IMG/VR virus record: IMGVR_UViG_3300012045_000001
Location: 1-60,024 of that record
Length of the DNA: 60,024 nucleotides
Reading direction: 5' to 3' (one strand)
Origin: a virus
Lineage: Duplodnaviria; Caudoviricetes
Position 1 is the stretch's first letter; each line of letters begins with the position of its first letter. The position numbers were made by a program, and so were the translations under genes. Shown here piece by piece: positions 12,846 through 60,024 of the stretch. The notes beneath the pieces are model-generated. The model searched no databases, was not told where the DNA came from, and was given only the letters and a program-made list of their open reading frames with translations.

Positions 12846-12867
12846 CAACAGGAGAGGAGATAATACT

Positions 12868-13359: not shown

Positions 13360-13432
13360 ATGCAACTACTGTGGCCTTACTACTAATCGTATTAAGGCCC
13401 ATATAAGACAAAACCATAGGAGGCAATACAAA

Positions 13433-13705
13433 ATGACGACGATGGTGACAGGGGAACAGGTAAAGGATGCAATGACGAAGGCCGGAATTACATTCGCGGC
13501 CGTCCGTCAGTGTAGCATCTGCGAAAGGCCGCTTTTCTTTGAGAGGCGAGGGGAAGATGTGTTCTTTGATTCAAACTGCGAGTGCGTTAGAGCTATCAGT
13601 CAAGTCCAGCCGAGGACTTGGGAAGAAGCGGCCGCTATAATCAATCAACGAGCGGAGGGGCCAAGCAAGACTGCGTTGGCCAAGGAATTTGGATTAACAA
13701 TCTAG
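13433..13705 (+). CDS. hypothetical protein (CxxC, CxC)
   Basis: AGGAGG RBS. Confidence 0.6.
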   Translation: MTTMVTGEQVKDAMTKAGITFAAVRQCSICERPLFFERRGEDVFFDSNCECVRAISQVQPRTWEEAAAIINQRAEGPSKTALAKEFGLTI

Positions 13706-13718
13706 GAGGAATAATACA

Positions 13719-13916
13719 ATGGCAAACATAGAATCAATCGTGGGCCGTCTGACGGTCGAAGAAACAAAGCAAATGCTGGCACAGTGCATAGTCCACTTAC
13801 AGGACACGGACATTATCGAAGTGCTGGACAACGAACTCGAAACTGATATGAAGGAAGAACTGATGGCCCGCTTTGAAATCACTGCGGACGCGATAGATGA
13901 AACAAGGGAGGTTTAA
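13719..13916 (+). CDS. acidic hypothetical protein
   Basis: AGGAGG RBS. Confidence 0.6.
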   Translation: MANIESIVGRLTVEETKQMLAQCIVHLQDTDIIEVLDNELETDMKEELMARFEITADAIDETREV

Positions 13917-13917
13917 T

Positions 13918-14901: not shown

Positions 14902-15317
14902 TGAACAGCACAGAGTTATTGATACTGCACGAGGAGATGTGCGCTAAGGCCCGTGAGATAATGAAGAAGAAGAACGTGGATTATTCGGGAGGGTCAACTG
15001 ACCCTTTCGCTAACTTCCGTGGGTCTCTCAATTACGGTGTCGAGCCTGAGATTGGTATTGCTATCCGAATCGGGGACAAGTTCAAACGAGTCGAGGCCTT
15101 TATCAAGAACGGCGCATTGGCTGTTGAAGATGAATCGGCCCTTGATTCAATACAGGATTCGATTAACTACCTTGTCCTAATGGCCGGACTTATTCACGAG
15201 CGAAAGGCTAAAGGCAGGAAGGAGTTGAAAATCATCAGGCCGGAAGACATAGGACTGGGGCCGCAGACACCGTATCAGAAATCAACCGAGGAAATCGTCG
15301 GCCCAGGTTATAAGTAG
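14901..15317 (+). CDS. Nmad1/DUF1599-like nucleotide-modification-associated protein
   Basis: KKNVDYS..DPFANF...RIGDKFKR...DSIQDSINY. Confidence 0.7.
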   Translation: MNSTELLILHEEMCAKAREIMKKKNVDYSGGSTDPFANFRGSLNYGVEPEIGIAIRIGDKFKRVEAFIKNGALAVEDESALDSIQDSINYLVLMAGLIHERKAKGRKELKIIRPEDIGLGPQTPYQKSTEEIVGPGYK

Positions 15318-15330
15318 GAGGACTAACAAA

Positions 15331-15984
15331 ATGTCACTGTGTAGGTTTGAATCCAACCGTGTTGAATGTATGATGTCTCCAGAGCGGGACGGATATTGCG
15401 TGTCCCACTGGAGACTTCAATACGGACACGCCATATCAACCGAGGGACTGGCAGAAGACGATGGCAAAGCAGTCCCACCCTACTGCCGGATATGCGGTAT
15501 GCTGATGGCCAATGGGTCAAAGGATGACCCGTGCGGAGCGAAGATGCTCAAGGCACTAATCGAAGGCAACTCCCCACTGGGACAGGTAGTAGGTGTTGCA
15601 ATGGCAGGAATGAGGCCGGACGTGCCGAAGCATACGGAACTGGACAAAGAGAATGCGTTTCAAGTCCTTATGGGACTGCTGGATATGATTCCTCCTTGTC
15701 CCGACTGTGAGCAACGCCGTTGTGTGGAGTGGTTGCAGAGATATTTTGCCTGGATTATGAATGCGATGCTCGGCCCATCGGGTTTTATGGCAATGTTTAT
15801 CTCCATACTGGAGCGGAACGGGGGCCAGATGGAGTTCACCAAGCAGGAAGTTATGGACGCTGGCCGAGTCCTCCGAGTCGAGTCGGAGGTTGACGAAGGC
15901 AGAGAACTTCTCCGCGCCGTAGTTATGGAACGGGCCGAAGAAGGTGAAGAAGTGGACGAAGGCTGGCCAGACCTAATTGGTTAA
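15331..15984 (+). CDS. Cys-rich hypothetical protein
   Basis: AGGAGG RBS; last gene of the + block. Confidence 0.65.
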   Translation: MSLCRFESNRVECMMSPERDGYCVSHWRLQYGHAISTEGLAEDDGKAVPPYCRICGMLMANGSKDDPCGAKMLKALIEGNSPLGQVVGVAMAGMRPDVPKHTELDKENAFQVLMGLLDMIPPCPDCEQRRCVEWLQRYFAWIMNAMLGPSGFMAMFISILERNGGQMEFTKQEVMDAGRVLRVESEVDEGRELLRAVVMERAEEGEEVDEGWPDLIG

Positions 15985-31428: not shown

Positions 31429-32019
31429 TTAAACTAGAATGCCTGTGCATTTAACCGTCAGTGACCAGTCGGCAGTGTGCAGACGGCCTCCCGTTTCTTC
31501 GTCCGTGACTGTCCCAGCGTTATAACTCTGGAGATAGTCGTGCGAACAGTTGTTAAAACCGAGTGTTCGGTTATTCTTGAAGGCTCTCCGCACCGTCATA
31601 TAGACGGCCATAAAAAGCGTTCTCGAATTTGTGTAAATCAGTCGGCCTGCCGCGTTGTCCCACTCGTCCACAACTTCCAAATCAAACGTAATCGGATACG
31701 TGAAATTTAGCTGGGTGTGAAGGTCGTTGGTTTTCTCAAACTCCTCCACTGAGGGAATGCCAATCTGAATGATAGATGTTATGGCCTTACGGTCTGTTAC
31801 TTGGTCTGGGACAGTCGAGATTAGCAAGTCCTCCTCGTCATTGTCAGCGAATCTCTCACGAGCCTCTATCTTTACATAGTCGGTTAAGTTCGGAACAGCA
31901 ATGATGGTGTCCCGTATCTTTCCGGCCAGAGTTTGTTCTAGCTGAATCTCGTCGGCTGGCAATGTAACGAGTATGGCATCTGGATTGTGTGCTGGCGCAG
32001 GGCCAATTCTGTTCTTCAT
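31429..32019 (-). CDS. putative tail terminator
   Basis: Position before major tail gene. Confidence 0.5.
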   Translation of the reverse strand: MKNRIGPAPAHNPDAILVTLPADEIQLEQTLAGKIRDTIIAVPNLTDYVKIEARERFADNDEEDLLISTVPDQVTDRKAITSIIQIGIPSVEEFEKTNDLHTQLNFTYPITFDLEVVDEWDNAAGRLIYTNSRTLFMAVYMTVRRAFKNNRTLGFNNCSHDYLQSYNAGTVTDEETGGRLHTADWSLTVKCTGILV

Positions 32020-32020
32020 A

Positions 32021-32683
32021 TTATCCTCGGCTTATCTCCGTCGCCGCACGAGAAAGAGCATTACGAATCTCCTGCAAGATACGGGCCTGATTTGCGTCCA
32101 ACGCTTTCTTATTCCAGTGCGTCGGTCTAATTCCTCTTTCAAATACTACACGGGCCGCTAAGAACGCGAGTCGTTTAGCGTCCTTCTTTTTGGCCCGTCG
32201 TCTCTGGTCGGAGTTCAAAGTCACGTTCTTTGTCCGTTTGATGCGATTGACCTTAGCGAGTGGTCTTGCCGTTCTCGCCCTAGGCCTTCTGGTCAAGCTG
32301 GAAAGCACCCGCTCGTTCGAGCCTTCGAGTCTGACCTTCTTCGATTCGTTTCCTGCGGCTTTCCTTTCAGCCCACTTGTAGATATTGCTACCGACACCGA
32401 ACGGGGGAAACTTTCCACGGCCCATTCCATACGCATCAACAAAGGCCTGCACCAGTGTCGAATAGACCGTAAGCTGAATGTTAGCTTGCTGGGTCTTTAC
32501 CTCAATCCTCAAGGACTTCTGCGAGTCGCCCCTGTCCCGTCTCATTCTGGTTTCGGCAGAGGCTTTGAGTCTCTTTCCGAGGCCCTCCATCCCGCCGCGT
32601 AAGTTACGAGCGAGGATAGGCAAGGCATTTTTAAGGCCTTGGTCTTTGTGGGCAATCAATCTGAATCCTATGGCAAATGGCAT
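32021..32683 (-). CDS. putative neck / tail completion protein
   Basis: Basic; synteny. Confidence 0.5.
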   Translation of the reverse strand: MPFAIGFRLIAHKDQGLKNALPILARNLRGGMEGLGKRLKASAETRMRRDRGDSQKSLRIEVKTQQANIQLTVYSTLVQAFVDAYGMGRGKFPPFGVGSNIYKWAERKAAGNESKKVRLEGSNERVLSSLTRRPRARTARPLAKVNRIKRTKNVTLNSDQRRRAKKKDAKRLAFLAARVVFERGIRPTHWNKKALDANQARILQEIRNALSRAATEISRG

Positions 32684-33090
32684 TATCGTTTGTTATCGAA
32701 GAACTTGTCTCGTAGTGTTCGTATCTTGCACGTTAAAGTATAGACTTGGGCCTCATTAGGGGCCAATGGTTCGACACTAGCGACGATGTATATTTCACCT
32801 AACACTTCAACGTGCAAGTCCTTCAAACGGATAGTGCGCTCTATTCCAGCATTAGCTTTTATATGTGCTACTTGGTAAATCACACTGCTTCCGTCATCTC
32901 TTGTAACTTCATCTCCGGCTATCCGGTCAAATCCTTTCTTGATGAATTGGGCCACTCTCCAGCCAGCAAACTGCACCGAGTCCGGTGTCATAAACTTCAT
33001 CGTTGCGTCTCTGCCAAGGCGAAGCAGTCTCGACACATCAAGATTAACTCCAGCTACGATTGTATCAACACTAACCAGTGGCCCTGCCAT
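32683..33090 (-). CDS. putative head closure protein
   Basis: Synteny and size. Confidence 0.45.
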   Translation of the reverse strand: MAGPLVSVDTIVAGVNLDVSRLLRLGRDATMKFMTPDSVQFAGWRVAQFIKKGFDRIAGDEVTRDDGSSVIYQVAHIKANAGIERTIRLKDLHVEVLGEIYIVASVEPLAPNEAQVYTLTCKIRTLRDKFFDNKR

Positions 33091-33092
33091 TG

Positions 33093-33530
33093 TTAATATC
33101 TCCTTCCGGTTTTATCGGCCTTGAGAATCGAATCATCATTTAGGGTGATGTCCTGCACTCTGCGCTGGACAAGGACAAACGATGTTCGGCCAAAGGTCAT
33201 CGGAAACTCGTAGAGAGTATTCAATACATCCTGAGCCAGAGCAAACCAGTTCGATTGAGTTGTGAAGTAACTCTGGGCCTTGTCAGACCCAGAGGATTCA
33301 ACAACAATCGCAGGCAACTCATCCAGCGCGGTTAAGACGGCTTTAAGGGCCTGGGTCTTAACCGTAGGCAGGAGTTGTTCTGCGTCAATCTTTCCAGATA
33401 GCAAAGGCCAACGGCCTACTGCATTCGCGTAGGCTGGATAATGCTTGACGAGATTCTCCAGTGCCAACTGTTGTGATGCAGTCAGGGCCGGAGTAATCTT
33501 CTCAGCGTCTATTTGTTCTAGCGTAATCAT
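33093..33530 (-). CDS. putative head-tail adaptor
   Basis: Synteny and size. Confidence 0.45.
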   Translation of the reverse strand: MITLEQIDAEKITPALTASQQLALENLVKHYPAYANAVGRWPLLSGKIDAEQLLPTVKTQALKAVLTALDELPAIVVESSGSDKAQSYFTTQSNWFALAQDVLNTLYEFPMTFGRTSFVLVQRRVQDITLNDDSILKADKTGRRY

Positions 33531-33548
33531 TGGCCTTACTCTCCTTTA

Positions 33549-34238
33549 TTAAAACTCCGGTGAATCGTCATCCTTGGTATTCGCTGTCCCGCTTCCCTGT
33601 TTCTCGTGTCCAACAGGGCCGCCCGATGGTGTCGGACTTGCGGCCGATTGCGCTCCTTCTGCAACTATCAAACGCTCACGCATCATTTCAAGTTCACGTT
33701 CGGCACGGATACGGGCATCCCGTTCTTTCTGCACGTCCGATGTTTCGGAAGCTGGAGTAACTGTGACCTGAGACATAAGGGCCTCCTCGGGAGTAGCCAG
33801 TCTGACTGCTTCGAGTTCAAAGAGTCTCCGTGCGCCTCTGCGAACATTATCCATTTCACCGTCTTTGCCCCAGTTGCCAAAGAAGCGGGACAAGTGACGA
33901 ACATTGCCGCGCATAAATCCTTCACCGTTAGGGCCTGAGACGTAATCAACAAGGACTACAACTCTGTCGCCCTCGCCCTCATTGTCCGCGCCAATCGCAA
34001 TCTGCGGGGCGATTTCTTCCGAGTGAATGTCTCCGAGGCCAGCTAGGACGAGGCTCTTGCGTCTTGATTCTTCCGTCACTGTGCCTGGGTTGGCCCCCAT
34101 AATGTTGTGTGGTGCAAACTGCGGGGCCTGTGACGCGCCATCCACAGCCACTTCATTCGTCTGCTGGACTCCTCCGTTTGTTACCGGAATCGTTTGTGCC
34201 AGTCCTCTTGCTGGCAAATCATTTGTTCTGTTAGCCAT
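33549..34238 (-). CDS. hypothetical protein after capsid gene
   Basis: GGAG RBS; 229 aa ORF. Confidence 0.6.
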   Translation of the reverse strand: MANRTNDLPARGLAQTIPVTNGGVQQTNEVAVDGASQAPQFAPHNIMGANPGTVTEESRRKSLVLAGLGDIHSEEIAPQIAIGADNEGEGDRVVVLVDYVSGPNGEGFMRGNVRHLSRFFGNWGKDGEMDNVRRGARRLFELEAVRLATPEEALMSQVTVTPASETSDVQKERDARIRAERELEMMRERLIVAEGAQSAASPTPSGGPVGHEKQGSGTANTKDDDSPEF

Positions 34239-34309
34239 ATTATTTCTCCGATAGGGTTTGTATTAAGAGGGCCAGCACTTGCCAGCCCTCCGTTAGTTAG
34301 ACTTGCTAG

Positions 34310-35338
34310 TTAGCAAGTTGCCTTGATGATTGCCGAGCCGTAAAAGATAACGAGGCCCCCGTTGTGGCCGCGATGAACTTCAATCAATCTCGGAACTCTG
34401 CGGTCAACGTGGTCAATGACCTTCTCATAACGGCCAGGGGCCATATTCTCGTTCTGTGCATTACGCACCATACGATACTCGCCCAGTCTGTCGCCGTTTG
34501 AACGTGCGCCGACAATAGACAAAACTCGGTCTGGAATCCACTTGGTAAATGTCCCAGTCGCTTCTGCAAAGTAACCTTCGTCGTATTCAACGAGGGTCGG
34601 CAGATTGTTAAGGGTAAGCATCTGATTGATGTCGCCCAGAGTTTTGAGAGGCCGTGCGTTTCCTGCCGATGTCGAGAGTTGGCCTCCAAGGTCGTTCAAG
34701 TTACGGTTACGAAGCAAGTAAGTAACAGTAACCGAGTTCAAGAAGATTTGCGCTCCCGCTCCGAAGTTGACACTCTTTCCGGTCTGCAAAAGACGCAGGC
34801 CCAAGAGGTCAGCCAGAGGAGTCGAGTTGACTAAATCTGACCAGTCCGAAAAGATGGCCGTCTGAATCGGGAAGATGTCACCATACACCGCACCCGTTGG
34901 GCCGATGAAAGTGAACTGTCCATCGAGTAGTGCCTTCCAGTGGATAAATTCGAGAAGGTCTGTTTCACGGTTGTTCAAGTAGTCTTGACGTTCCGTTATC
35001 AGTTCCGAAATATCAACTGGCTGGCCCGACGGGACTTGCTGGGCGCGAAGGGTCATCATCTTCTCGTCCACAGTCATATACTCGCCATAGACTCCAGGCT
35101 GGGCCGAGAATGCTTTCTCGCCAACCATCGTGACATAGCTAGGCTCACCGTTAAGGCCGCGAAGCTGTTGAAATCCTCTCCAGTTGTCCTTCTGAGACCA
35201 TTCGAGCGTCCAGAATTGTGAATCAACCGTAGGGAAGATTTGGAACGTGGGCCGATTACGAGTAAGATTCTGAATCTTCTCAGGGTTAATCTCCCGCAGT
35301 TCCCTTGTTGTTGGATATTGGTAATTTACTAAACTCAT
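34310..35338 (-). CDS. major capsid protein (lambda gpE-like)
   Basis: 342 aa after protease and decoration genes; WSD...PLADL motif. Confidence 0.8.
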   Translation of the reverse strand: MSLVNYQYPTTRELREINPEKIQNLTRNRPTFQIFPTVDSQFWTLEWSQKDNWRGFQQLRGLNGEPSYVTMVGEKAFSAQPGVYGEYMTVDEKMMTLRAQQVPSGQPVDISELITERQDYLNNRETDLLEFIHWKALLDGQFTFIGPTGAVYGDIFPIQTAIFSDWSDLVNSTPLADLLGLRLLQTGKSVNFGAGAQIFLNSVTVTYLLRNRNLNDLGGQLSTSAGNARPLKTLGDINQMLTLNNLPTLVEYDEGYFAEATGTFTKWIPDRVLSIVGARSNGDRLGEYRMVRNAQNENMAPGRYEKVIDHVDRRVPRLIEVHRGHNGGLVIFYGSAIIKATC

Positions 35339-35382
35339 TTAATTGTCTCCTATCAACATTGGATTAAAAGGGCCGCGGCCCA

Positions 35383-35835
35383 CTATGCGGCAACTGGGGC
35401 CGCGCCTAGTTCGATGATGCCTGCTGTAACCGTTCCGCGAAGGATACGGCCAACTGTCGGCGCATTGCCAACTGTCAGGCCCACAAGGTCTTGCGTTTTG
35501 AAAAAGCCCTGATAGTAGAAGCAGTCGCTTCCTTCAAACACTTCTCCACTGCCAGCGATAAAGATTGACCCTAACTGGGACTGTCCAAATTCATTAACCG
35601 TAATCGGGTATTTAACTACTCGACGCGGCCCGTCGTATCCGGCTGTGCCAACCTTGGCCCAGACGTTTGTTCCGTCATCCTTCTGGGCAACGATTTGTCC
35701 TTTCGGATAAGTGATTGTTAAGCCTGCTCCGGCCGCGAGAAAAACTCCGTGGTCAGTTCTGGCGTGTTCCGGCACTTGTGCTGGCTCTAGGAAGTCCCAA
35801 GTGCGGCCTGTCGTTCTAATAGCTGTATTCTGCAT
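35383..35835 (-). CDS. head decoration protein
   Basis: 150 aa between protease and capsid; YPKGQIVAQ. Confidence 0.65.
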   Translation of the reverse strand: MQNTAIRTTGRTWDFLEPAQVPEHARTDHGVFLAAGAGLTITYPKGQIVAQKDDGTNVWAKVGTAGYDGPRRVVKYPITVNEFGQSQLGSIFIAGSGEVFEGSDCFYYQGFFKTQDLVGLTVGNAPTVGRILRGTVTAGIIELGAAPVAA

Positions 35836-39371: not shown

Positions 39372-39914
39372 CTACTTGGTGAGTGAAAACTTGGGCTTTC
39401 CACTACCCGCTTTACCTTTCGTCGCAGGAGTCTCGTAAGCCACGGAAGTCTTGCGTCCGCTTGGTTTAGGAGTAGGAGAGGCCACTTTCTTCGGGGCCAC
39501 TTTTGCCACTGTTTTGCCGTTGCCTGCAACTTTCTTAGCGGCATTTGCCAGAGCATTCGGCGCAACTGCTTTTTTCGCAACCGGAGCAACCGGACGAGTC
39601 GGCCGTGTTGGTTGCTTCGAGGCCACTGGGCGTGTCGGTCTGGTCGGTTTGACCGGAGCAGTGACCTTAGCTGGTGCGCGTCGAGCGGCGGACTGGGCCG
39701 GTCTTGACTGCGTGAATACCATTCCTCTCGCGGCCTCCGCTTCCCTGCCTCTGATAATTCGGCCTCCGGTCATCACCTTTCCGGTGACTTCAAACTCTAT
39801 CATATCGCCTTTCTTGCCCCCGAGCGCGTTAATTAGTCCCGAGGGAATCTTACCGCGCTTAGTGTTGCTTGCGCCTTCTTCGTTGATTGTAGCGTGGAAC
39901 TTTACTGTTGCCAT
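39372..39914 (-). CDS. AbrB-like DNA-binding protein with histone H1-like K/A/P tail
   Basis: GKIPSGLINALGGKKGDMIEFEV; own promoter and terminator. Confidence 0.65.
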   Translation of the reverse strand: MATVKFHATINEEGASNTKRGKIPSGLINALGGKKGDMIEFEVTGKVMTGGRIIRGREAEAARGMVFTQSRPAQSAARRAPAKVTAPVKPTRPTRPVASKQPTRPTRPVAPVAKKAVAPNALANAAKKVAGNGKTVAKVAPKKVASPTPKPSGRKTSVAYETPATKGKAGSGKPKFSLTK

Positions 39915-39973
39915 CTTGTTTTTACCTTCCTGTATATTTAGTATTGCGTCCCACTCCAAGGGCCGAGGATTAA

Positions 39974-48869: not shown

Positions 48870-49176
48870 TGTCTTTGACCTCCTGCTTGAGTTCCGTGGC
48901 CGCGTTTTTGATTCGCTGATTCTCCAGATTGAGTTCGTCAATCCGAGTCGAATTGTAATAAACCATAATCACCGTTACCGTCGTGGCCGCAATCATCGAA
49001 AGTATGGCAATGATGATTAGCTTTGACCACAGTGTAGATAGAACGTGATAAACAGTCGTGCCTTCGTTGTCAACAATGATTGCGGCCGCTAGGCCCATTC
49101 GCCTGTTGTTGGCCACTATTTTAACGTCAGATTCTAACGGCGTATTGCTATTGCCTTTCTCTACGTCTCCTCTCAT
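48853..49176 (-). CDS. single-TM coiled-coil membrane protein
   Basis: LIIIAILSMIAATTVTVIMVYY. Confidence 0.6.
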   Translation of the reverse strand: MRGDVEKGNSNTPLESDVKIVANNRRMGLAAAIIVDNEGTTVYHVLSTLWSKLIIIAILSMIAATTVTVIMVYYNSTRIDELNLENQRIKNAATELKQEVKDNDKSK

Positions 49177-49760
49177 TAACTATGTCCTCCTTTACTTATA
49201 TTAGCGGCCCTTACTTCGTCCATTATCTTTGTTATCGCTTTCGGGGCCTCCAGTTTTGACGATACTTGGTAAGTCTCGGGGACTTCTCCCTCTCCGGCTT
49301 TTAACTCACGGTAGTTGGATATGGCCCTCGCTACTACATAAAACAGTTCCTCGTATTCGACGGGCTTCTTAAATACGTCCGCTCCCAGCCTTCTGATTTC
49401 CTCACGTATGATTGAATCAACAAAGGCCGATGCGAAGATAATCGGCAGAGAGTCCAGCTTCTTTCGGATTTCTCTGGCAACACCGATGCCAGTAAGTTTT
49501 GGGCCAGCGATTGTGCCTATCTGGTCAAAGTAGTTGATGTCGGTAATTACGGCGCAGAAGCACTGGGACAATGGACTACCGCACCGCTCATTGATGCAGT
49601 CCAGTATGGCCTGGGCCGAGTCAACAAACTCTCCAGTCCACCCGAGAGAGTCAACCATTTGTCTCATTATCCCGAGCGTATCTGGGTCATCGTCGGCGCA
49701 GAGGATATGGGCCTTCGGTGCTAACTTCCTCGCCTTTTCGATTAAGTCTGTTGTTGGCAT
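49176..49760 (-). CDS. stand-alone response regulator receiver (CheY-like)
   Basis: ILCADDD, ITDI phospho-acceptor Asp, IFASA, KKP. Confidence 0.8.
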   Translation of the reverse strand: MPTTDLIEKARKLAPKAHILCADDDPDTLGIMRQMVDSLGWTGEFVDSAQAILDCINERCGSPLSQCFCAVITDINYFDQIGTIAGPKLTGIGVAREIRKKLDSLPIIFASAFVDSIIREEIRRLGADVFKKPVEYEELFYVVARAISNYRELKAGEGEVPETYQVSSKLEAPKAITKIMDEVRAANISKGGHS

Positions 49761-51879: not shown

Positions 51880-52410
51880 TTTTTCGTGTGTTCTCGCTTC
51901 CTGCGCGTGAGCCTGCGGGTGTGCCTGCTCGTGTATATGCGCGTGAGAGATACGGCCAATTTGTGTGATATGACCCTTTTATTGTGCGCTCGGACATTTA
52001 CAAAACGGCAAACTTTTGGAGATTGGAAAATTGGGGAGGTATCTGGAATTTGGCAGGCCAAACTTTTGGAGATTGGAAAATTGGGAATGTATCTTTAATT
52101 CGGTTACGTGGCCCCTGTCCCTTATCGCTTGCTCGGTTACATTCGGGCGCGTTCATACAGACGCACACGCACACATATACGCGCATAACACGCGCCTGTT
52201 CTAGTCTTCGCGCACGGGCGCACATACACACGCGCCCACTTCATTCAGTCGCCAGCCAAATGTGTGTGCCTGCGTATGCGCTTGCGTGTTCCTGTCTTCG
52301 CGTGTGCGCGTGTCGTATGCGCGTGTTCCTGTCTTCGCGCCCGTGTGCATACGCACGTCGCGCCCGTGCGTAAGAGTAGGATTACACGGGCGCACGTCGC
52401 ACACGCGCCC
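51880..52410. repeat. alternating purine-pyrimidine low-complexity tract with a 50 bp-period direct repeat
   Basis: (CA/CG/TG)n-rich; CAAACTTTTGGAGATTGGAAAATTGGG at 52009-52035 and 52059-52085. Confidence 0.8.
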
Positions 52411-52458
52411 GTTAAGAATGGATAGGCTGGGCTTTTGTCCCTTTGCTAAGTGGTTTAA

Positions 52459-52711
52459 TATCAACAGTTTAGCTATTATCACTTTCTTTGTTACAATCTT
52501 TGTCAGTCTAAAGCCCAATGAATACGGGCGTTTCAAGGCAGTTTGACAAAGTTTGTCAGTTCAAAGTGCCGTTTATTGTTACTTTTCGACGGTCAAGGCA
52601 AGGTTTGTGCCTCTCTAAAGTGTTGATTCTATTACACTTACAGGCGTTCCTTTAGTTTTACTCAATAAAACCGATGTAGCCAGTCATAAGTCTATTGTTT
52701 TCAACACTTTG
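52459..52711. promoter_or_regulatory. IHF-like sites and palindromic enhancer-like boxes
   Basis: WATCAAN4TTR at 52459-52471 (+) and 52616-52628 (-), near match 52699-52711; TGACAAAGTTTGTCA 52544-52558, variant 52491-52505. Confidence 0.55.
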
Positions 52712-52717
52712 CAACTG

Positions 52718-52733
52718 TGGCACGGCGACTGCA
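52718..52733 (+). promoter_or_regulatory. sigma54 (-24/-12) promoter
   Basis: TGGCACG-GCGA-CTGCA versus consensus TGGCACG-N4-TTGCW. Confidence 0.6.
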
Positions 52734-52744
52734 TTAGAACAAAC

Positions 52745-53660
52745 CGACAGCAACGGTGCTACTGGCTAACCCCGACACACAGCACGGTTGCGGACAACTT
52801 GTTAAACAGCAAACACAGTGGCGCGATAAGTTCTTTCGCGTATTCGGTAGATTAACGTCTGTGCGGAGGCTTAGAGTTGTCCCTAGCAAAGCGAAAAGAC
52901 ATACAAAGCACACGCATAACGCGGTTTAATTACCCCCTTGCGACTGGTCAACCCCGATATGTGCCTCTGTCCCTAGCGAAAATGCACAGATAGCAACGCG
53001 GTATCGAGTCCGCACGGCTGGAAGTGTGAGCATCTTTGGCGAAATTCAGGCTTAATTGCCCGTCTGCTCTAGGGACAAACGCGAGATGTAGATATTTGAC
53101 AACAAAAACACACACGCAACAAAGGCGCGGAGTGTATGCGAAACGGGACAACTATGCACGAAAGGTGTCCCACAGGAAAGCCGGAAAGCGGGCGTTGTGA
53201 AACGCCCAACAGTCAAGCACACAAAGGCGATTAGTGGGACATATCGGGAAAGGCGAAAGCGAAAGCACGACTGCAAGGGACGCATAACACAGGGACACGC
53301 GAACAGACGGCGGCGAGGGACAAGATACAAACGGCGGCAGTATGTCAGGGGACTAATCACAAGATTACTTGGGTGTGAAATATAAGCGGGTCAAGGGGAA
53401 CGTCTGAAACGGCAGTTATCCTAACAGGTGAGGCACAATAGCGTGAGCGTGTCCCTTTCCCGCAAAGCTAACGGGGTAACATCCCGCATAATGCGAATAA
53501 GCGCATTATAAACTTCCTTCCCGTGAAACGGAAGGGACATTTGAGCCTTTTGACTTTGTGGTAGTCCCAGTGAGCATCAAAAGGTTGAAATGTCCCTAAC
53601 CGGACATATACGCTTAGGCGTGAAATAACACTTGCCCCGCGTGTGGCTTAAAATACACGC
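52745..53660 (+). ncRNA. candidate large structured non-coding RNA or leader
   Basis: No credible ORF; many hairpins, GNRA loops and long-range helices. Confidence 0.5.
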
Positions 53661-53670
53661 TCTAAACACA

Positions 53671-54528
53671 ATGAAATCAACGAATAACAACGCAAAAATG
53701 ACCTTAACCGCAACCGAATTACAAGCAATTATCGCGTCCGCAGTAGCCAGCGCGTTATCACAATCGAGTGTCCCAGCCACGAGCGCGAAACTCGTGTCCC
53801 GTGTGCCTGTCGCCCCGATGGTGAAATCGCCCACGAAATCGCCCGTGAAATCAGTCCCGCAACCGACCGCAAGCGCAGAAGTTGACCCCAACGAAATCCG
53901 CATCGGCATCACGGCTGGGATGGTTGCCAACCGCTTGAAATTCCCGTCCCGTATCTTCGACCGCAACGGCGTAGCGTATGTGGACGGCGTGAAATACACC
54001 GCACAGCCGAATGACCAAAACCGTAGCACGAAAATTGGCGTTGGGACATACGGGCTGAAAGAGGGACAAACGCTTATCGTGTCCCGCGAAAATCCTCGCT
54101 CGAACAAGTGGGCGACGAAAGTGAGTGGCAAAGGCGTTGCAAGTGTCCCAGCCGTCGTCGCTCGTGTCGCTCCTGCGAAATCCGCGCCGAAAGTGTCCCT
54201 CACGCAAATTGCCGCTAAAATCGCTCCGAAAGCGGTCAAAGCCGCTCCGGTCAAAGCGGTAACGGAAAAAGAGGCGTATGTGCCTGTGTTCAACCGTGCG
54301 GACGCTATGAACATCAAGTCCCTGATTGCCGCAACAGCGAAACTCGCGCTGGCTGGTTACGGTGCGGGTGTTGAAAACACGAACTTGCTCCCAATCGAGG
54401 GACTTGAAGCTGACGCTCGTGTGTTCTTGTCCAGCCGTGAATCGTCGGCTTTCCGCTCGGCGCGTAAGAAACTGGGCGTGTCCCTTCGCAAAGCAGTCGA
54501 AATGCTGAATGATGAAGTGTATGGTTAG
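53671..54528 (+). CDS. first early-block protein: possible DNA-binding domain flanked by K/A/P/V-rich linkers
   Basis: Long ORF, terminator downstream; no clear SD. Confidence 0.7.
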   Translation: MKSTNNNAKMTLTATELQAIIASAVASALSQSSVPATSAKLVSRVPVAPMVKSPTKSPVKSVPQPTASAEVDPNEIRIGITAGMVANRLKFPSRIFDRNGVAYVDGVKYTAQPNDQNRSTKIGVGTYGLKEGQTLIVSRENPRSNKWATKVSGKGVASVPAVVARVAPAKSAPKVSLTQIAAKIAPKAVKAAPVKAVTEKEAYVPVFNRADAMNIKSLIAATAKLALAGYGAGVENTNLLPIEGLEADARVFLSSRESSAFRSARKKLGVSLRKAVEMLNDEVYG

Positions 54529-54564
54529 TATTACCGTAGTATGGTTAGTATTACCGTAGTATGG
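54519..54564. repeat. 20 bp tandem repeat (2.3 copies)
   Basis: GTATGGTTAGTATTACCGTA x2 plus GTATGG. Confidence 0.9.
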
Positions 54565-54594
54565 CTAATCGCAAGCGTAAGGCGTGTGTAATCT

Positions 54595-54625
54595 GGGACA
54601 GTGCCTTTGACTGTCCCTTTCTTTT
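54595..54625 (+). terminator. intrinsic terminator
   Basis: GGGACAGT/ACTGTCCC stem plus T tract. Confidence 0.7.
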
Positions 54626-54655
54626 GTGTCCCTAATCTGAAATGGAGTGTGCATA

Positions 54656-54981
54656 ATGAAAAAGCGAGTCAAACCAACGCTTAAAAGCGAAATGAGAGTT
54701 GTAACAAGTCCCAGCACGTTTGCATACGGACAAACGGCGAAATTCGGCAAGCCTGCGATGATCCTGCGATGATGGCAAGCGAACAAGCGAAACGTGATGA
54801 GGCGAAACGGGTGTCCCTGCTACGTGCATCGCAGTATGCGTATGAGCAGGAACAGCAAATTGCTAAAGAGATGGTTGGATATGACTGGGACAATGTTCAC
54901 GGCATACTTACACAGGCAAAAGGCACGATGTCCCTTGAGCGGGCTAAAGAACTCAGTTTGTTTATCAAAGGAGCGAAATAA
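54656..54981 (+). pseudogene. ORF split by an 11 bp tandem duplication
   Basis: CCTGCGATGAT x2 (54752-54773); removing one copy fuses MKKRVKP... with MMASEQ... Confidence 0.6.
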
Positions 54982-55169
54982 TGAAAGGACTACTCGTATT
55001 TGCAATAATCGTGGGACTGGCGTTCTGGGCTTTCGGCTCGTTCGCACAATCCGTAATCACAAACCAAACCGTCGTTCGTAACGCGAATGATGCGAAACTG
55101 TCCCAGTGCGTAAGCGCAGGGGCATCAACCGAAACCGAATGTCTGTTAGCACAATTAGGAGCGAAATAG
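54981..55169 (+). CDS. small secreted/membrane protein
   Basis: Signal-like N-terminus; RBS. Confidence 0.6.
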   Translation: MKGLLVFAIIVGLAFWAFGSFAQSVITNQTVVRNANDAKLSQCVSAGASTETECLLAQLGAK

Positions 55170-55413
55170 TATGTATAAACACGAAAAAGCGGGACTGATA
55201 GCGTTAATCGTAACGCTTATGTGGCTGGTGAGCCTGTTGGCTTGCTTTGCCCGATGAAACAATTCAGACACACCAATCGAGTGTCCCAGCAGGATAGGGA
55301 CACGAAACGTAATACGAAACAGGACAGACGAGCGCGAAGGCTCGTGATACAAGCACTGTCCCAGTATCGTCGGCAATTAACGAAACTAACACAGATAAAT
55401 GGAGGACAAACAA

Positions 55414-55692
55414 ATGATAGTAGTATGCACACGACGACCGCAGGTTGAAATCACAGATGCACCGGAACAAACTCACAGCAAACCGCGTAGCATCAAAGTC
55501 ATCAAAGCTGGGACACATAAAGCAGTCCCGACTCCCACGTTAGACGCGAAACCCAAGCGCATACCAGACAGCGAAATCCGTGAGTCTTGGGTCAAAGCCA
55601 AAAACGAATCGAAATCAAGTGCCTATCGGATAGCGATGGCTTTCTTCTTCGATGTCCCAGATGTATCAATGCAGACAATAGGAGCGAAATAA
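55414..55692 (+). CDS. hypothetical protein
   Basis: GGAGG RBS. Confidence 0.6.
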   Translation: MIVVCTRRPQVEITDAPEQTHSKPRSIKVIKAGTHKAVPTPTLDAKPKRIPDSEIRESWVKAKNESKSSAYRIAMAFFFDVPDVSMQTIGAK

Positions 55693-56228
55693 TGAACGAA
55701 CAAACAACAAATTCAATGTGCGTATCGTGTGAGACGATATTTAACAAGTCCGGCGCGAGATGCGGGACACAATGCCCAGTGTGTCGTGGGACAGTGCGGG
55801 AAGTTTTAACCGGAGTGATTGATAATAACTCAGTCCCGCACATCTGGGACGAACTCGGAAGCGGGAACGAAATCAATCTGGACTACGAGAACGCGCTTCG
55901 AGAACACAAACTCGAATGCGGCGAAGACGAGTCGTGCGCCGAGCGTGGACACGAGGACTGGAATGACGAGTATGAGTCCCAATCGGATACGATGCTGATT
56001 GGGGACTGGGCTAAGGACTCGGACGGTGATTATGTCCCAATCGTGAATGGGGACAAAGGGTATGCCGCGATAGTCCGCGAGTCGGTGTCCCAAGTGGTCT
56101 GGTCAAGAGCGATTGCGAAACGGAAATCAATGTGTAGTCCCTGCTATCCGATGCAAGCGGACTTGGACTCTGGGGATGGGACAATACCGTGCTATGCCTT
56201 CCCAGCCGATATGATGGAGGAAAACTAA
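55692..56228 (+). CDS. Cys-rich acidic hypothetical protein
   Basis: CxxC pairs; TAATG coupling. Confidence 0.65.
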   Translation: MNEQTTNSMCVSCETIFNKSGARCGTQCPVCRGTVREVLTGVIDNNSVPHIWDELGSGNEINLDYENALREHKLECGEDESCAERGHEDWNDEYESQSDTMLIGDWAKDSDGDYVPIVNGDKGYAAIVRESVSQVVWSRAIAKRKSMCSPCYPMQADLDSGDGTIPCYAFPADMMEEN

Positions 56229-56554
56229 TGAATCACGAAACTTACAGGGACTCAAGTAGAGGCGTATTCGAGCGGGTCAGCAAGCCGATTGCGAGACGTG
56301 CTTATAAGGAGGGACAGTCAATCTGGCTTGTCCCTTCGCACGTTGCTTTCAGCTTTAGCAATCAGTGGGTTGTCCCGTGCGAAATAAGCACGGCAAACGA
56401 CACGAACGACTCGACGGACTTTGACCGGACTGTGAACAACTACGAGTATTACAACTGTTGTTCGGAGTTAGGGACATACACGAGGTTTTTCATAGTGAGA
56501 CCGAAGGAGAGGAACGACCCGAAGGAGGGACAATTAAATGAAATACATAGTTGA
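56228..56554 (+). CDS. hypothetical protein
   Basis: GGAGG RBS; YEYYNC..ELG.Y. Confidence 0.65.
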   Translation: MNHETYRDSSRGVFERVSKPIARRAYKEGQSIWLVPSHVAFSFSNQWVVPCEISTANDTNDSTDFDRTVNNYEYYNCCSELGTYTRFFIVRPKERNDPKEGQLNEIHS

Positions 56555-56699
56555 AATCGAAGTGGACACTGACGCGCTCAGAGAGGCGCGGGGGGACACT
56601 GACGACGATAGCGTAATCGAAGCACTCGAAGCGGAGTTCGGCTGGCTTGCAGAATCCGGCATAACCGTTGTTTCGATTGACGAAAAGCACGATGTTTAA
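56538..56699 (+). CDS. small acidic protein (53 aa)
   Basis: AAGGAGG RBS; MKYIVEIEVD...; not in ORF track. Confidence 0.6.
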   Translation: MKYIVEIEVDTDALREARGDTDDDSVIEALEAEFGWLAESGITVVSIDEKHDV

Positions 56700-56766
56700 T
56701 GGCGAGTTGCAAAATGGCAACCAATGAGTTATAATGAGAAAACCAATCAGCTAAGGAGACAAACAA

Positions 56767-57366
56767 ATGAACAGTGAAACATACGACCGAGTGGGACACG
56801 CAATCACGCAGTCCCTTATACAGAGCGAGGACTTAACCAACATCATCGAATCCGATATGGCATCCGACGACGGGGACATCGCCTTCGGAATGGAAAACGA
56901 AGCGTTCGCGCTTATGGAAACCCTGTTTGCCAAGTTCGGCGCGGACTTAGGCGAGGACGGACTTCGAGAGTCGAATGTCCCAGAGCATAAGGCACTGACC
57001 GTGCTTATCGAATCTATGGGCATACCGGAAACATATCAGTTGTGCGAAGCAATCACGTATGTCCTGCTTGACCCAGAGCCAATGGATATACCGAGTGGGA
57101 CAGAGGGCGAAACATACTTCGACGGGACAGGGACGATATTCAAGTCCCTTGATGCTGACGGATGCGCTTCGTTTCGCAAGTGGGCGAGAGACAATTACAT
57201 CATCGGGGACGCATACCCGAAAGACATCTGGCATCCGGTTACGGTTAGCGAAATCGAAAAGATGAACTTTGAAGCGTTTGGCGAGGACGGGGACACCGTG
57301 AAAGCGGACGCGGATAATTACAACACCGAAGACGACAACGGGGACTGGACTCCAGTAAAGAGTTAG
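56767..57366 (+). CDS. acidic hypothetical protein
   Basis: TAAGGAG RBS. Confidence 0.7.
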   Translation: MNSETYDRVGHAITQSLIQSEDLTNIIESDMASDDGDIAFGMENEAFALMETLFAKFGADLGEDGLRESNVPEHKALTVLIESMGIPETYQLCEAITYVLLDPEPMDIPSGTEGETYFDGTGTIFKSLDADGCASFRKWARDNYIIGDAYPKDIWHPVTVSEIEKMNFEAFGEDGDTVKADADNYNTEDDNGDWTPVKS

Positions 57367-57499
57367 ACTGAGGATTGAGGGCGTAAGGGACACTATGAAC
57401 CTTGCGCCTTCATTCGTTTGTCTAAACGCAAACGGTTAGAATAAATCAGTCCCAAGTGCGGCTGGGACTTAATTGCCGCACATACAAGGACATACAATT

Positions 57500-58552
57500 A
57501 TGGCAACGAAGAAATTAAACGACGACCAGAAACGCGACCTCATCATTGACACGCTTGGTGAACTGGGACAAATGAGTCCGCAGGATTTGATGAGCCGCAC
57601 AGGGACAAAGGGAGCGGACATCAAACACATCGTCAAGGAACTCAAAGACGATGGGACAATGGTTATCAGTGGGAATTCGTGCAGGCTATCGGATGAAGCG
57701 CAAGCCGAATACGATAACGCGAAAGTTCCGGCTGTCCCAGTCAAAGTCAAAGCAAAACCGAAAGCCGCTCCAGTTGCGGCAGTTGCGACTGCGCCAGCTA
57801 AACCGTCAAAGCCGACGAAGGTTGTCCCAGTTGTCGAAGAAGACATACCGGAACTCGAATACGAACTCGAAGACGATGGGACAGGCGAACCGGAAGAAGA
57901 CGTGGACGAAATGATAAACGAATACAACGCGCTTCAAGCCAAGTCCCGCAAGAACAAAACCGAACAGGCGCGATACCAAACACTCGAAGAACGGCTTGAC
58001 GAGTTAGGCGTGTTTGACCCAGAGGAGGATGCAGATGGGAGCAGTAGCGTGGATGAAATGGAGGATGGGACAGGAACAGAGGGACTTGGAGAAGGCGACC
58101 TTGAAGGCTTCGATGATGAAACTGAGAGCGGAGGCGAAGGCGAAGATAGTCCCGAAGGCGACGAAGACCCCGACGCATTTGAAGACGACCACGATGACGA
58201 CTTCTCCGACGACCACGATTCAGACGAAGACGAAGACCCAGTGGAGGAGGAAGCTGTCCCAGCCAGACCGACTAAGGCGCAAGCTAAAGGGACTGCGAAA
58301 CCGAGTGCTGGAAAACCGAGTCCCAAAACGGCGAAAGTTGCCGGAGCAGGAAGTCGAGTAACCGACCCGCAAGCGGCGTTCTCAATGTCGTTCAAGCCGA
58401 TTGACACGCTGACCGATGACGAACTCGAAACCCGCATCGAATCCGCGACCGAAGCGGCTGAGATGTTATCGGGACAGGGACACGAGGACGTTGCCGAAAT
58501 GCTGATGCGCTCCGTAGCCAAAGCAAGAAAGCAACTAAACAAACGCTCATAG
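57500..58552 (+). CDS. winged-helix protein with long acidic region
   Basis: IIDTLGELGQMSPQDLMSRTG...IVKELKDDG wHTH pattern; D/E-rich middle. Confidence 0.7.
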   Translation: MATKKLNDDQKRDLIIDTLGELGQMSPQDLMSRTGTKGADIKHIVKELKDDGTMVISGNSCRLSDEAQAEYDNAKVPAVPVKVKAKPKAAPVAAVATAPAKPSKPTKVVPVVEEDIPELEYELEDDGTGEPEEDVDEMINEYNALQAKSRKNKTEQARYQTLEERLDELGVFDPEEDADGSSSVDEMEDGTGTEGLGEGDLEGFDDETESGGEGEDSPEGDEDPDAFEDDHDDDFSDDHDSDEDEDPVEEEAVPARPTKAQAKGTAKPSAGKPSPKTAKVAGAGSRVTDPQAAFSMSFKPIDTLTDDELETRIESATEAAEMLSGQGHEDVAEMLMRSVAKARKQLNKRS

Positions 58553-58565
58553 CCGAGCAAGGACT

Positions 58566-58601
58566 GGGACAGCCGCACATCATACTGCGGCTGTCCCTTT
58601 T
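58566..58601 (+). terminator. intrinsic terminator
   Basis: GGGACAGCCGCA/TGCGGCTGTCCC 12 bp stem plus TTTT. Confidence 0.75.
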
Positions 58602-58617
58602 ACATAGGAGAAACAAA

Positions 58618-58788
58618 ATGACAGCATACGTTATAGTGGGACAGGATTACGGGACACAGGAAACAAACTGCTTCGGTGTATTCAGCGACCGAGAGAAAGC
58701 TGACATTGCACTGGGACATCTTAAAGACGATGAAACGGGCGTTGACTTGCAGATTATTGAGATGACGGTCAACGAGGAAGTAATTTAA
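58618..58788 (+). CDS. small hypothetical protein (56 aa)
   Basis: AGGAG RBS; FGVFSDREKA; not in ORF track. Confidence 0.6.
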   Translation: MTAYVIVGQDYGTQETNCFGVFSDREKADIALGHLKDDETGVDLQIIEMTVNEEVI

Positions 58789-58809
58789 CACTGGAGGGAC
58801 ACAAAGCAA

Positions 58810-59421
58810 ATGGACATCAACGATTACAGAGAGGCACTGAAAACCAACAACTACAACTACAATCGCAACAAGGATGTGTCAATCCTATTCCGGCGCAAAG
58901 TCGAGAAATGGATTAACGAGAAAACTGGGGACAAGGTTTATTTACTCTTTGCCCCTAACGGCAAAACAATAATGACACGGGAAATCGGACTCACCGATTT
59001 AGTCCCAGACGTTGTTGTAACGTCCAACAATTCGACGTGGGCGATGGATGATGTCAAGGGCGCGGCGATGGAGCGCGGAATAAAGATGAGCGACGAACAA
59101 GCCCAACACTTACTCGAAGACAATGCCAAAGGCATCGGGACTTATGGCTGGGACGGCATCTCGAACGTGCTTGATGACGTGAGGACTTGTGATGAGTGTA
59201 GCCGTGCGGTTGACGTGATACCGGACACTGAAACGGACAACGGCTCGTATGAGTTGCTGGACGGACTGCACATCTGCGAGGACTGCAAAATCAAAGGCGA
59301 CTATGTTGCCTGTATTGAATGTGAGGCGTATCACCCGAAGGGACTGATGAAGCACGTCGGAGGAATTGCACCAGACCAACAGGACTATGTATGTCCGAGT
59401 TGTGAAAAGGAGGAAAACTAA
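58810..59421 (+). CDS. Zn-finger hypothetical protein
   Basis: Four CxxC pairs. Confidence 0.65.
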   Translation: MDINDYREALKTNNYNYNRNKDVSILFRRKVEKWINEKTGDKVYLLFAPNGKTIMTREIGLTDLVPDVVVTSNNSTWAMDDVKGAAMERGIKMSDEQAQHLLEDNAKGIGTYGWDGISNVLDDVRTCDECSRAVDVIPDTETDNGSYELLDGLHICEDCKIKGDYVACIECEAYHPKGLMKHVGGIAPDQQDYVCPSCEKEEN

Positions 59422-59639
59422 TGAGCATCGAAATACAAAGTAAGGACGTGGGACTGGACATTGATGATGTAACCGCAGACCGGAAGGACTACAACTCGCC
59501 GGACTGGGACACGGTTACTTCTGGGGACACTGCGGAGGACGCTCTGCGCTCTCTCGTGTCTATGCTTAACTCGGAAGAAATTGACGACGTGAATCTGTAT
59601 TATCGCGCAGTAGATACGACAAGGGAGATTGTTTTATGA
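59421..59639 (+). CDS. acidic hypothetical protein
   Basis: AGGAGG RBS. Confidence 0.6.
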   Translation: MSIEIQSKDVGLDIDDVTADRKDYNSPDWDTVTSGDTAEDALRSLVSMLNSEEIDDVNLYYRAVDTTREIVL

Positions 59640-59778
59640 CGGTATTTCTCGTGTTAATTATATTCGCCTGTCTGATAGGCTGGGCAAAGGAAAACCTCTG
59701 GTCAGAAAACGACACGCAAAACTTCGCGCAAGCCGCGAGGCACGGGACTAGAATGAGAAAATAGGAGGACTTGGGACT

Positions 59779-60024
59779 ATGACACCAGATAATTTGAATG
59801 AGTTCCAACGGGGCTATGTAGAATGTGCCTTGTGGACTAGCAACGAATACAGCAAGGACGCGGACGGCTTGGACTGTCCCCACAACTTCTTAGACCAGAA
59901 CTACGGAGTCAAGGACATTGACAGTGGGACAATCAAGCAAATGATTAAGGACTGCAATCAGTTCTATCAGGACAACGCGCAAGACATCATACGAGTTTGC
60001 GACAGCAAAGCAAACACATACAAC
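59779..60024 (+). CDS. hypothetical protein (3' truncated)
   Basis: AGGAGG RBS; MTPDNLNEFQRGYVECALWTS..., open to window end. Confidence 0.6.
   Translation, partial: MTPDNLNEFQRGYVECALWTSNEYSKDADGLDCPHNFLDQNYGVKDIDSGTIKQMIKDCNQFYQDNAQDIIRVCDSKANTYN

Follow-up and report, generated by a model that had tools for sequence, protein, structure and literature searches.

GGCC and GGGAC as interchangeable, evenly spaced words in the genome of a tailed phage with a GGCC-free early block

Gene layout and the two motif domains

The virus record IMGVR_UViG_3300012045_000001 (Duplodnaviria; Caudoviricetes) contains two short words, GGCC and GGGAC (read on the other strand as GTCCC), which are strongly enriched and whose use changes abruptly at two positions. 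These words, referred to below as tags, are the subject of the present analysis. The window, i.e., the stretch of DNA that was analyzed, is the whole virus record of 60,024 bp; CheckV gives it as 100% complete, and it is rated linear, with no end repeats. An open reading frame (ORF) stays open in frame across the ends of the record, which indicates that the record is circularly continuous. Scans with PHROG, Pfam and NCBIfam yielded the gene content of a tailed, siphovirus-like phage, and no close relative was found among GenBank phages (megablast against phages, no match).

The replication block (278-15984, plus strand) encodes an HNH endonuclease, a DUF932 protein, RusA, DNA polymerase I, a DnaD-like loader, DnaB and MazG. 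The late block (16316-51746, minus strand) holds the genes for lysis, packaging, head and tail, from an amidase-LysM endolysin via terminase, portal, protease, capsid and major tail protein to a tape-measure-sized protein of 1,713 amino acids (aa). The early block (53632-60024, plus strand) is composed of small genes without a curated family match, all located on one strand and downstream of a divergent, ~1.5 kb non-coding region. This control region between the divergent blocks (52114-53630) is nearly free of tags at 52117-52879 and rich in GGGAC from 52879. The cumulative guanine-cytosine (GC) skew has its minimum here, at 50-54 kb, and its maximum at 16 kb, tracking both directions of transcription.

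Domain A (81-52113) is tagged with GGCC. It contains all 645 copies of this word found in the genome, the first at 81 and the last at 52110, compared with 209±12 in dinucleotide shuffles, and in addition 181 gap-filling GGGAC/GTCCC words. Domain B (52114-60024), which includes the early block, contains no GGCC, no GTSAC and no CCWGG (S, C or G; W, A or T), but 109 GGGAC/GTCCC words, i.e., 6.8 times the zero-order expectation, 107 of which are found from 52879 on. The domain continues across the junction of the record ends to window bases 1-80, with GGGAC at 65 and 134 and the first GGCC at 81. Its total length is 7,991 bp, in which 110 GGGAC/GTCCC words are present (13.5±3.4 in dinucleotide shuffles); for GGCC, the shuffles of this part yield 23±4.5 copies, and 99 would be expected at the density seen in the remaining genome. 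The hexamer GGGACA is found in 73 copies in 52114-60024, which is 18.5 times expectation. The base that follows GGGAC is A in 67% and T in 28% of the cases and never C, and the word is flanked by W on both sides; a C in this position would create GGWCC, which is forbidden in this genome.

The original prediction, made from the letters of the sequence, had described a strong enrichment of GGCC up to ~52113 with 25 copies in the polymerase gene (3775-5661), ~105 GGGAC/GTCCC words at ~7 times chance, mostly as GGGACW, in both orientations and in terminator stems, and a border that coincides with the divergence point of the genes. The above counts agree with this description, as do the 25 copies in the polymerase gene, two hairpins with such stems (see below) and the position of the left border, 52113, at the divergence of the two gene blocks. 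The statement that GGCC is absent after 52110-52113 holds up to 60024 but the GGCC-free stretch was found to continue to base 80, where it ends in a second sharp border.

Spacing and interchangeability of the tags

The enrichment was compared with a series of null models. In synonymous-codon shuffles of the coding DNA of domain A, GGCC is found 315±13 times compared with 580 observed, and in those of domain B GGGAC/GTCCC is found 24.8±3.8 times compared with 77 observed. When 120 forbidden words are barred from the synonymous shuffles, GGCC reaches 380-421 (about 393) vs the observed 580, while a maximum-entropy forbidden-word model gives observed/expected ratios (O/E) of 1.31 for GGCC and 1.0-1.1 for GGGAC. 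Forbidden words account for a minor part of the enrichment at most. Shuffles matched in codons or dinucleotides, which had been proposed as a refuting test, do not reproduce the counts, and the argument made along with that proposal, i.e., that avoidance of restriction can account for the depletion of words but not for their enrichment, is borne out by the synonymous and constrained shuffles and the maximum-entropy model. Together with the dinucleotide shuffles, these models also led us to reject a by-product of composition.

The signal resides at the level of the DNA. GGCC is found in all three codon phases (353, 141 and 86 sites), its enrichment is equal in both directions of transcription, and eight copies are present in the 708 bases of domain A that are free of ORFs of at least 50 aa on either strand, i.e., 1 per 88 bp. 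GGGAC/GTCCC is likewise used in both orientations and in all three reading frames. The sequence context around GGCC is flat in composition, GGGAC has only the W on either side, and no repeat unit was found, which excludes a longer hidden motif or a repeat family. A drive toward GGCC by very-short-patch repair was also rejected, as the neighboring words GGTC/GACC are not specially depleted (O/E 0.80 in A and 0.61 in B).

The tags are selected for coverage, with about one per 65 bp and with gaps above ~150 bp being disfavored. The coefficient of variation (CV) of the GGCC gaps is 0.72 compared with 0.99±0.04 under random placement, and gaps shorter than 20 bp are half as frequent as expected (67 vs 136±9). 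In the core of domain B (52879 to window position 134) the CV of the GGGAC/GTCCC gaps is 0.673; of 3000 random placements, not one reached so low a value, and the gaps extend to at most 220 bp. For the combined tags of domain A the CV is 0.70 vs 0.795±0.018 with GGGAC scattered at random. The mean tag gap is similar in the two domains (63 and 67 bp). Genome-wide, the hazard of reaching another tag increases five-fold from 0-10 to 100-120 bp after the previous one, and 37 gaps exceed 150 bp where 89 are expected. The original suggestion that something needs about one site per 70 bp is supported by the mean gaps and by the CVs of 0.70 and 0.67, the controls being at ~0.8-1.0. Helical phasing (~10.5 bp) of the tags was not seen, and a period-2 peak was traced to rounding of half-integer centers.

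The main new result is that the two tags are interchangeable. GGGAC/GTCCC is enriched also in domain A, with 166 words compared with 98±9 in synonymous shuffles, and there it is found away from GGCC, at a median distance to the nearest GGCC of 44 bp vs 23.6±2.2 bp for random positions. Among the 332 sufficiently frequent pentamers in A, GGGAC is the one farthest from GGCC (44.5 bp; interquartile range of the pentamers, 22.5-27). GGGACA and GTCCCA head the 131 hexamers ranked in the same way, and GGGA and GGAC head the tetramers, while GGAC without the leading G is found at the background distance of 27-28 bp.

Because the genetic code offers synonymous choices, the use of each tag can also be expressed as a fraction of the opportunities to place it. 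Domain A has 883 synonymous opportunities for GGGAC/GTCCC, and the fraction used rises with the distance from GGCC through 19% and 31% to 42% (at ≥50 bp and also at ≥80 bp; Mann-Whitney p 1.7e-30), starting from 6% at ≤15 bp, a bin that partly reflects mutually exclusive codons. The use of GGCC relative to other GGCC sites increases correspondingly from 19% near to 61% far. Overall, the opportunities used are 589 of 1,609 in A and 0 of 139 in B for GGCC, and 170 of 883 in A and 77 of 118 in B for GGGAC/GTCCC. With refined gene starts, 44 of 54 sense and 28 of 51 antisense GGGAC opportunities are used in domain B, i.e., use of this tag is near saturation. A switch in the orientation of GGGAC as an origin signal or a Chi-like signal was considered and rejected, as the positional gradient follows the amino-acid opportunity.

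Taken together, GGCC is shown to be the default tag and WGGGACW to be an interchangeable substitute wherever GGCC is missing. The gap filling, the equal density in both domains and the distance-dependent use imply selection for a tag within ~50 bp of every position, where either word is accepted. The idea that GGGAC takes the place of an avoided GGCC in the early block, which was part of the original prediction, is sustained by the 0 of 139 vs 77 of 118 opportunities and by the gap filling with GGGAC in A.

Purged words, candidate proteins and relatives

The tags stand out against an almost complete purge of words that are targets of restriction. Of the 64 hexamer palindromes, 51 have no copy in the genome, including the AT-rich AATATT, TTTAAA and ATTAAT; in total, 132 hexamer palindromes are found in domain A vs 813 expected, and 12 vs 125 in domain B. 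Among the shorter words, CATG, GTAC, GCWGC and GGWCC are absent from the genome, GATC is present in 3 and CCSGG in 2 copies, and GGNNCC-type words are likewise purged genome-wide. Synonymous shuffles of A contain 108±7 CATG (0 observed), 117±9 GTAC (0 observed) and 164±11 GATC (2 observed), and those of B 14.3±3.2 GGCC (0 observed). To our knowledge, this is among the most complete restriction-word purges known. The absences are those expected from restriction-site avoidance in phages, which is seen here for CATG, GTAC, GATC, GCWGC, GGWCC, CCSGG and the 51 hexamer palindromes. Avoidance, however, explains only absences and cannot account for a palindrome that is enriched 2.8-fold, occurs at even spacing and has been turned off in one domain.

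A few hexamer palindromes are tolerated. Those without a GGCC core, i.e., TTGCAA, TTATAA, TAATTA, TAGCTA and AAATTT, are common to both domains, and few restriction enzymes presumably have these specificities. A GGCC core is present in AGGCCT (27 copies), TGGCCA (31) and CGGCCG (34), and GCGGCCGC is found in 8 copies, with GGGCCC being absent although this word also belongs to other purged classes. Because hexamer and octamer palindromes with a GGCC core are kept while nearly all others are purged, GGCC seems to be shielded outside the early block. The list of words forbidden in B contains that of A and extends it, which is what one would anticipate of DNA with a greater exposure to restriction. 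A mere modification of virion DNA at GGCC would leave B free to carry this word, so its total absence suggests that B encounters the host before the shield has been established.

The products of the early block are mostly acidic; 9 of 12 refined genes (the last gene being counted as its two pieces) have a product with an isoelectric point (pI) of 4.1-4.6. Scans of 10 early-block ORFs against Pfam and PHROGs gave matches only to phrog_1915 and phrog_20867, both of unknown function and both in the last gene, and one weak Ren-like hit. The first early gene (53671-54528, plus strand) encodes a basic protein (pI 10.3) with lysine/alanine/proline (K/A/P) repeats similar to those of a histone H1 tail; this candidate for a DNA coat protein matches no family. 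The 350 aa product of a further early gene (57500-58552, plus strand), a candidate tag reader, has a predicted N-terminal winged-helix fold, a K/A/P-rich linker and a long acidic region. Its residues 8-77 were modeled with a predicted local distance difference test (pLDDT) score of 83-91 and match MarR/ArsR-type chains with Z-scores of 10-11.8 and root-mean-square deviations of 1.2-2.0 over 64-73 residues; this fold is common and is no proof of function. In the same fold search, Z-alpha domains (Z 9.8-10) were found among many winged helices. A candidate DNA-binding partner is encoded in the late region (39372-39959, minus strand), where the N-terminal part appears AbrB/SpoVT-like by eye and is followed by ~120 aa of basic K/A/P/threonine repeats; no PDB or Pfam match was found for this protein. 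The predicted structure of the protein encoded at 58810-59421 was not usable (mean pLDDT 48).

The last early gene, the one with the phrog_1915 match, starts at 59779, runs to 60024 and continues in frame as 1-228 (plus strand), such that the border from B to A is located inside the gene. The C-terminal 75 residues of its product are 39% aspartate plus glutamate (D+E) and contain repeated D/E-F-F/L-x-x-F-D motifs; the first GGCC sites (81 and 183) fall in this acidic tail. Genes for methyltransferases or for Dnd, DpdA or Mom-like functions were not found in PHROG, Pfam and NCBIfam scans of ~60 ORFs (four head-tail ORFs of 150-229 aa at 31429-35835 fall outside the scan), and the motif (D/N/S)PP(Y/F/W/H) is absent from all open frames of at least 80 aa.

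Other features of the early block and its surroundings include two terminator-like hairpins on the plus strand, one at 54595-54617 with the stem GGGACAG...CTGTCCC and one at 58566-58597 with a 12-pair stem (GGGACAGCCGCA...TGCGGCTGTCCC). The first early gene is directly followed by a 20 nt perfect tandem duplication (GTATGGTTAGTATTACCGTA twice, 54519-54558), and 118 bases at 54524-54643 are missing from the contigs of two runs. Two direct repeats of 45 nt, with 89% of their letters alike, are found at 52009-52103, immediately to the left of the last GGCC (52110). Close to this border, on the GGCC-free side and at the minimum of the GC skew, a stretch of ~280 bp of low-complexity, alternating purine-pyrimidine DNA (52140-52420; CACACGCGC/GTGTGCGCG type) contains internal direct and inverted repeats. 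This stretch may serve as an origin or as a signal for packaging or entry, or it may be prone to adopt the Z-form. The largest tag-free gap of the genome, 462 bp at 745-1207, has a GC content of 0.44 and contains 2 hexamer palindromes vs 7 expected. It coincides with a stretch that had earlier been read as a cassette inserted in or after the HNH gene, and the missing tags would be in keeping with DNA of more recent origin. At 49176-49760, among the genes just downstream of the endolysin, a response-regulator receiver domain that stands alone is encoded (Pfam PF00072, E 1.2e-7). No RNA family was found at gathering score.

A chimeric assembly as the origin of the two domains was rejected, as a contig from a second assembler (same sample) spans 51897-54030 with 0 differences and as A and B share purged and tolerated palindromes. 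Diverged relatives are present in two other metagenomes, and in both the loose end next to 52980 again reads TTGTCCCTTGTCCC. Terminases of 50-92% identity are found on contigs of 55-70 kb. The sole homologue of a B protein is 59% identical and resides on a 66,857 bp contig, a length shared by the contig with the 92%-identical terminase, which indicates that the block is part of the lineage but is either fast-evolving or subject to exchange. Terminase relatives in IMG/VR reach at most 47% identity; a metagenome scan with a DUF932 alignment, which is a poor query, returned only generic homologues at ≤45% identity, and GTDB genomes gave only 2 distant matches. Hints as to the host are weak and consist of DUF932 homologues in Actinomycetota, Nitrospirota and Paenibacillus.

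Among 120 distant-relative loci, the median O/E of GGCC is 0.85 and the highest value 1.62, and an evenly spaced top word was found in none; three of the loci purge hexamer palindromes as strongly. In the IMG/VR loci L190, L191 and L192 (45% terminase identity, GC content 0.55-0.57) the O/E of hexamer palindromes is 0.09-0.20, GATC is lacking, and an enriched, evenly spaced word is not seen. In L210, L211 and L212 (44% terminase identity) GATC is almost absent and CCWGG is 3.3-4.2-fold enriched but clustered (CV ~2), which adds a further example of phages enriched in a methylation-type word.

Possible early exposure and alternative explanations

In our tentative view, the best reading of the above data is that domain B is a segment exposed early during infection, as in phage T5, and that the tags are selected for their spacing as sites of a protective binder or modification. 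The T5 literature describes a phage that resists type I, II and III restriction and CRISPR if the targets are absent from its first-step DNA, the mechanism that protects the rest of the DNA being still unknown (PMC10644984; 10.1101/866236). According to the same sources, the first-step region is a minority segment of small host-takeover genes free of restriction targets (8% in T5, to be compared with 13% here), while the rest of the T5 genome carries targets that are uncut in vivo, and one border has a long, untranslated, repeat-rich region (PMC10644984; 10.1101/866236). In the phage studied here, domain B lacks targets that A carries (GGCC 645 vs 0, GTSAC 72 vs 0, CCWGG 62 vs 0). The difference is that the rest of the genome is protected here only for these three words, all else being still purged, and that T5 has no known enriched, evenly spaced tags. 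By analogy, the block would thus work like a first-step-transfer region rather than be a member of that family.

In this explanation, the 8 kb block of small, mostly acidic orphan genes would be the part of the genome that meets the host naked, either because it enters first or because it stays exposed until early proteins have been made, in accordance with the logic of first-step transfer in T5. Such a block would have to lose every restriction target, GGCC, GTSAC and CCWGG included, and its tag would have to be GGGAC, while GGCC would be shielded in the other 52 kb. The most speculative step is that the shield and the tag reader would be the same, early-made activity. The favored reader would be a phage DNA-binding protein that nucleates at the tags and covers ~±50 bp, for which the products of 53671-54528 (H1-like), 57500-58552 (winged-helix) and 39372-39959 (AbrB-like) are candidates; the alternative would be a sequence-specific modification of the DNA. 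The presence of three encoded proteins with DNA-binding features and basic H1-like repeats makes us lean toward a nucleating coat over a modification.

A number of observations weigh against this explanation. The position of B as the first-injected segment is a presumption. No T5-like terminal repeat is seen: the record has no end repeats, and the contig depth over 52-60 kb (6.4-12.2) is not doubled relative to that elsewhere (8.0-10.8). Homologues of T5 A1, A2 and dmp were not found among the 10 early-block ORFs (PHROG, Pfam, NCBIfam), and there is no DnaA-box array, TTWTNCACA having 3 matches genome-wide, which is the chance level, and none in 52114-53630. An early coat over all of A would make the purging of CATG, GTAC, GATC and ~50 hexamers needless; because A still purges all other restriction words, any shield would have to be restricted to the tag and could not extend over the whole DNA, and this adds an assumption. 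A single reader for both GGCC and GGGAC would not have an obvious specificity. The absence of GTSAC and CCWGG from B rests on expectations of only 11 and 9.5 sites. Finally, the only B protein with a homologue is just 59% identical in a lineage where the terminase is 92% identical, which agrees with a fast evolution of early genes but equally well with an exchange of modules.

A serious rival, although in our estimate an unlikely one, is that the tags are substrates of host modification enzymes, i.e., a GGCC methyltransferase (orphan or linked to restriction), Dnd-type GpsGCC phosphorothioation, or a GGGAC methylase. The phage would then enrich the tags to gather protective or "self" marks, and GGCC, marked or unmarked, would be a liability in the early block. 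As no modification enzyme was recognized in the phage scans, any mark would be made by the host. Protective modification at short motifs is known among phages, e.g., the multispecific GGCC methylases of Bacillus phages, Mom, and 7-deazaguanine. On the other hand, we know of no system, within a limited search of the literature, that pairs GGCC with GGGAC. Known cases of protective modification resemble the present one in that a short motif, which may be GGCC, becomes refractory to the cognate enzymes, which would explain why AGGCCT, TGGCCA, CGGCCG and GCGGCCGC are tolerated, as would any modified core (for Dnd GpsGCC, see PMC6435447). They differ in that no motif enrichment, even spacing or motif-free early domain is known for them, and no such gene was found here in the phage scans. 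GGCC is a known phosphorothioate core, and the partial marking by this system, for which 4,855 of ~40,700 GAAC/GTTC sites are given for E. coli B7A (PMC6435447), would reward many sites. Another precedent is Synechocystis, where GGCC is described as methylated by a widespread orphan enzyme at 1 site per 185 bp, with an 11 kb GGCC-free island (PMC6604393). Known phosphorothioate marks are nevertheless kilobases apart, not 65 bp, and GGCC-modified virion DNA would protect the early block as well, which would make the use of 0 of the 139 sites there needless.

Another origin of the domains could lie in ancestry, the early block having been taken over by recombination from a related phage lineage in which GGCC is avoided and GGGAC is abundant. 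Exchange of early regions is common among phages, and the contrast between the B-protein homologue (59%) and the terminase (92%) points in the same direction. The GGCC-free island of the Synechocystis plasmid pSYSA has also been read as horizontal transfer (PMC6604393). Such a mosaic is nonetheless improbable in light of the selection for GGGAC inside A exactly where GGCC is missing, i.e., both tags work in the genome today. In addition, tag density and CV are the same in both domains, the purged words and the few tolerated hexamers are common to A and B, the domain spans the whole early block from the control region to the inside of the last gene, and the saturation with GGGAC in the donor would itself be left unexplained.

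We find it even harder to believe that the tags attenuate a processive or translocating host nuclease in a Chi-like manner, with GGCC acting in both directions and GGGAC being dense on the leading segment. The selection against long tag-free gaps, the radius of influence of ~50 bp and the preference for sense (44 of 54) over antisense (28 of 51) GGGAC opportunities would suit such a role. Against it stand the known Chi sites, which are 5-8 nt long, asymmetric and far sparser, the lack of a known precedent for a palindromic 4-mer, the unexplained absence of GGCC from the early block, and the fact that the apparent orientation gradient of GGGAC follows the amino-acid opportunity. More generally, over-represented words that are read by a machine, such as Chi, FtsK KOPS and DNA uptake sequences, are 7-12 nt long, kilobases apart and mostly oriented. 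T5 is relevant also here, as its pre-early functions must deal with RecBCD (PMC10644984), and cyanobacterial HIP1 is a further genome-wide over-represented word (PMC6604393). These words share with the tags their short length, the selection at the DNA level and the occurrence in coding and non-coding DNA, and they often double as terminator stems, as is the case for uptake sequences; however, they are cellular, and neither an even spacing of ~65 bp nor a domain-wise replacement by a second word is known for them. Least credible of all is a by-product of codon usage, amino-acid content and the ~120 forbidden words, or an effect at the RNA level, e.g., hairpins in early transcripts. Forbidden words do raise GGCC from 315 to ~393, with an O/E of 1.31 in the maximum-entropy model, and GGGAC/GTCCC pairs do form terminator stems. 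Yet the observed counts are far outside every null, the distance-dependent use of synonymous opportunities cannot come from composition, the enrichment of GGCC is equal in both directions and persists in the 708 ORF-free bases, and the O/E of GGCC never exceeds 1.62 among the 120 distant-relative loci.

Returning to early exposure with spacing-selected tags, a more specific proposal, which is possible but which we regard with some doubt, is that of a spacing code: a reader of a kind not yet described, which could be a coat protein that nucleates at the tags or a novel activity that marks DNA, would need a tag within ~50 bp of every position and accept GGCC or WGGGACW, the choice of word being set by which part of the genome faces restriction unprotected. 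Nothing alike was found in the literature on enriched or evenly spaced motifs in phage genomes (open-access texts, without supplements). If true, the spacing code would be a new principle of phage genome organization and counter-defense.

Irrespective of the nature of the reader, hexamer palindromes have been purged almost completely, which makes this genome an extreme natural instance of a restriction-proof one. The finding also offers a signature, recognizable in the nucleotides themselves, of an early-exposed genome segment, and the motif enrichment, the under-dispersed gaps and the gap filling by a second motif are statistics for which metagenomic phages can be scanned. The shielding of second-step DNA in T5-like infection has been an open problem since 1979, which the present phage, with its defined motif and its three candidate DNA-binding proteins, makes accessible to study. 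Should a protective coat or mark read the tags, a DNA-level spacing rule would constrain synonymous sites throughout the genome, where over a third of the possible GGCC positions and, in the early block, 65-81% of the possible GGGAC positions are occupied.

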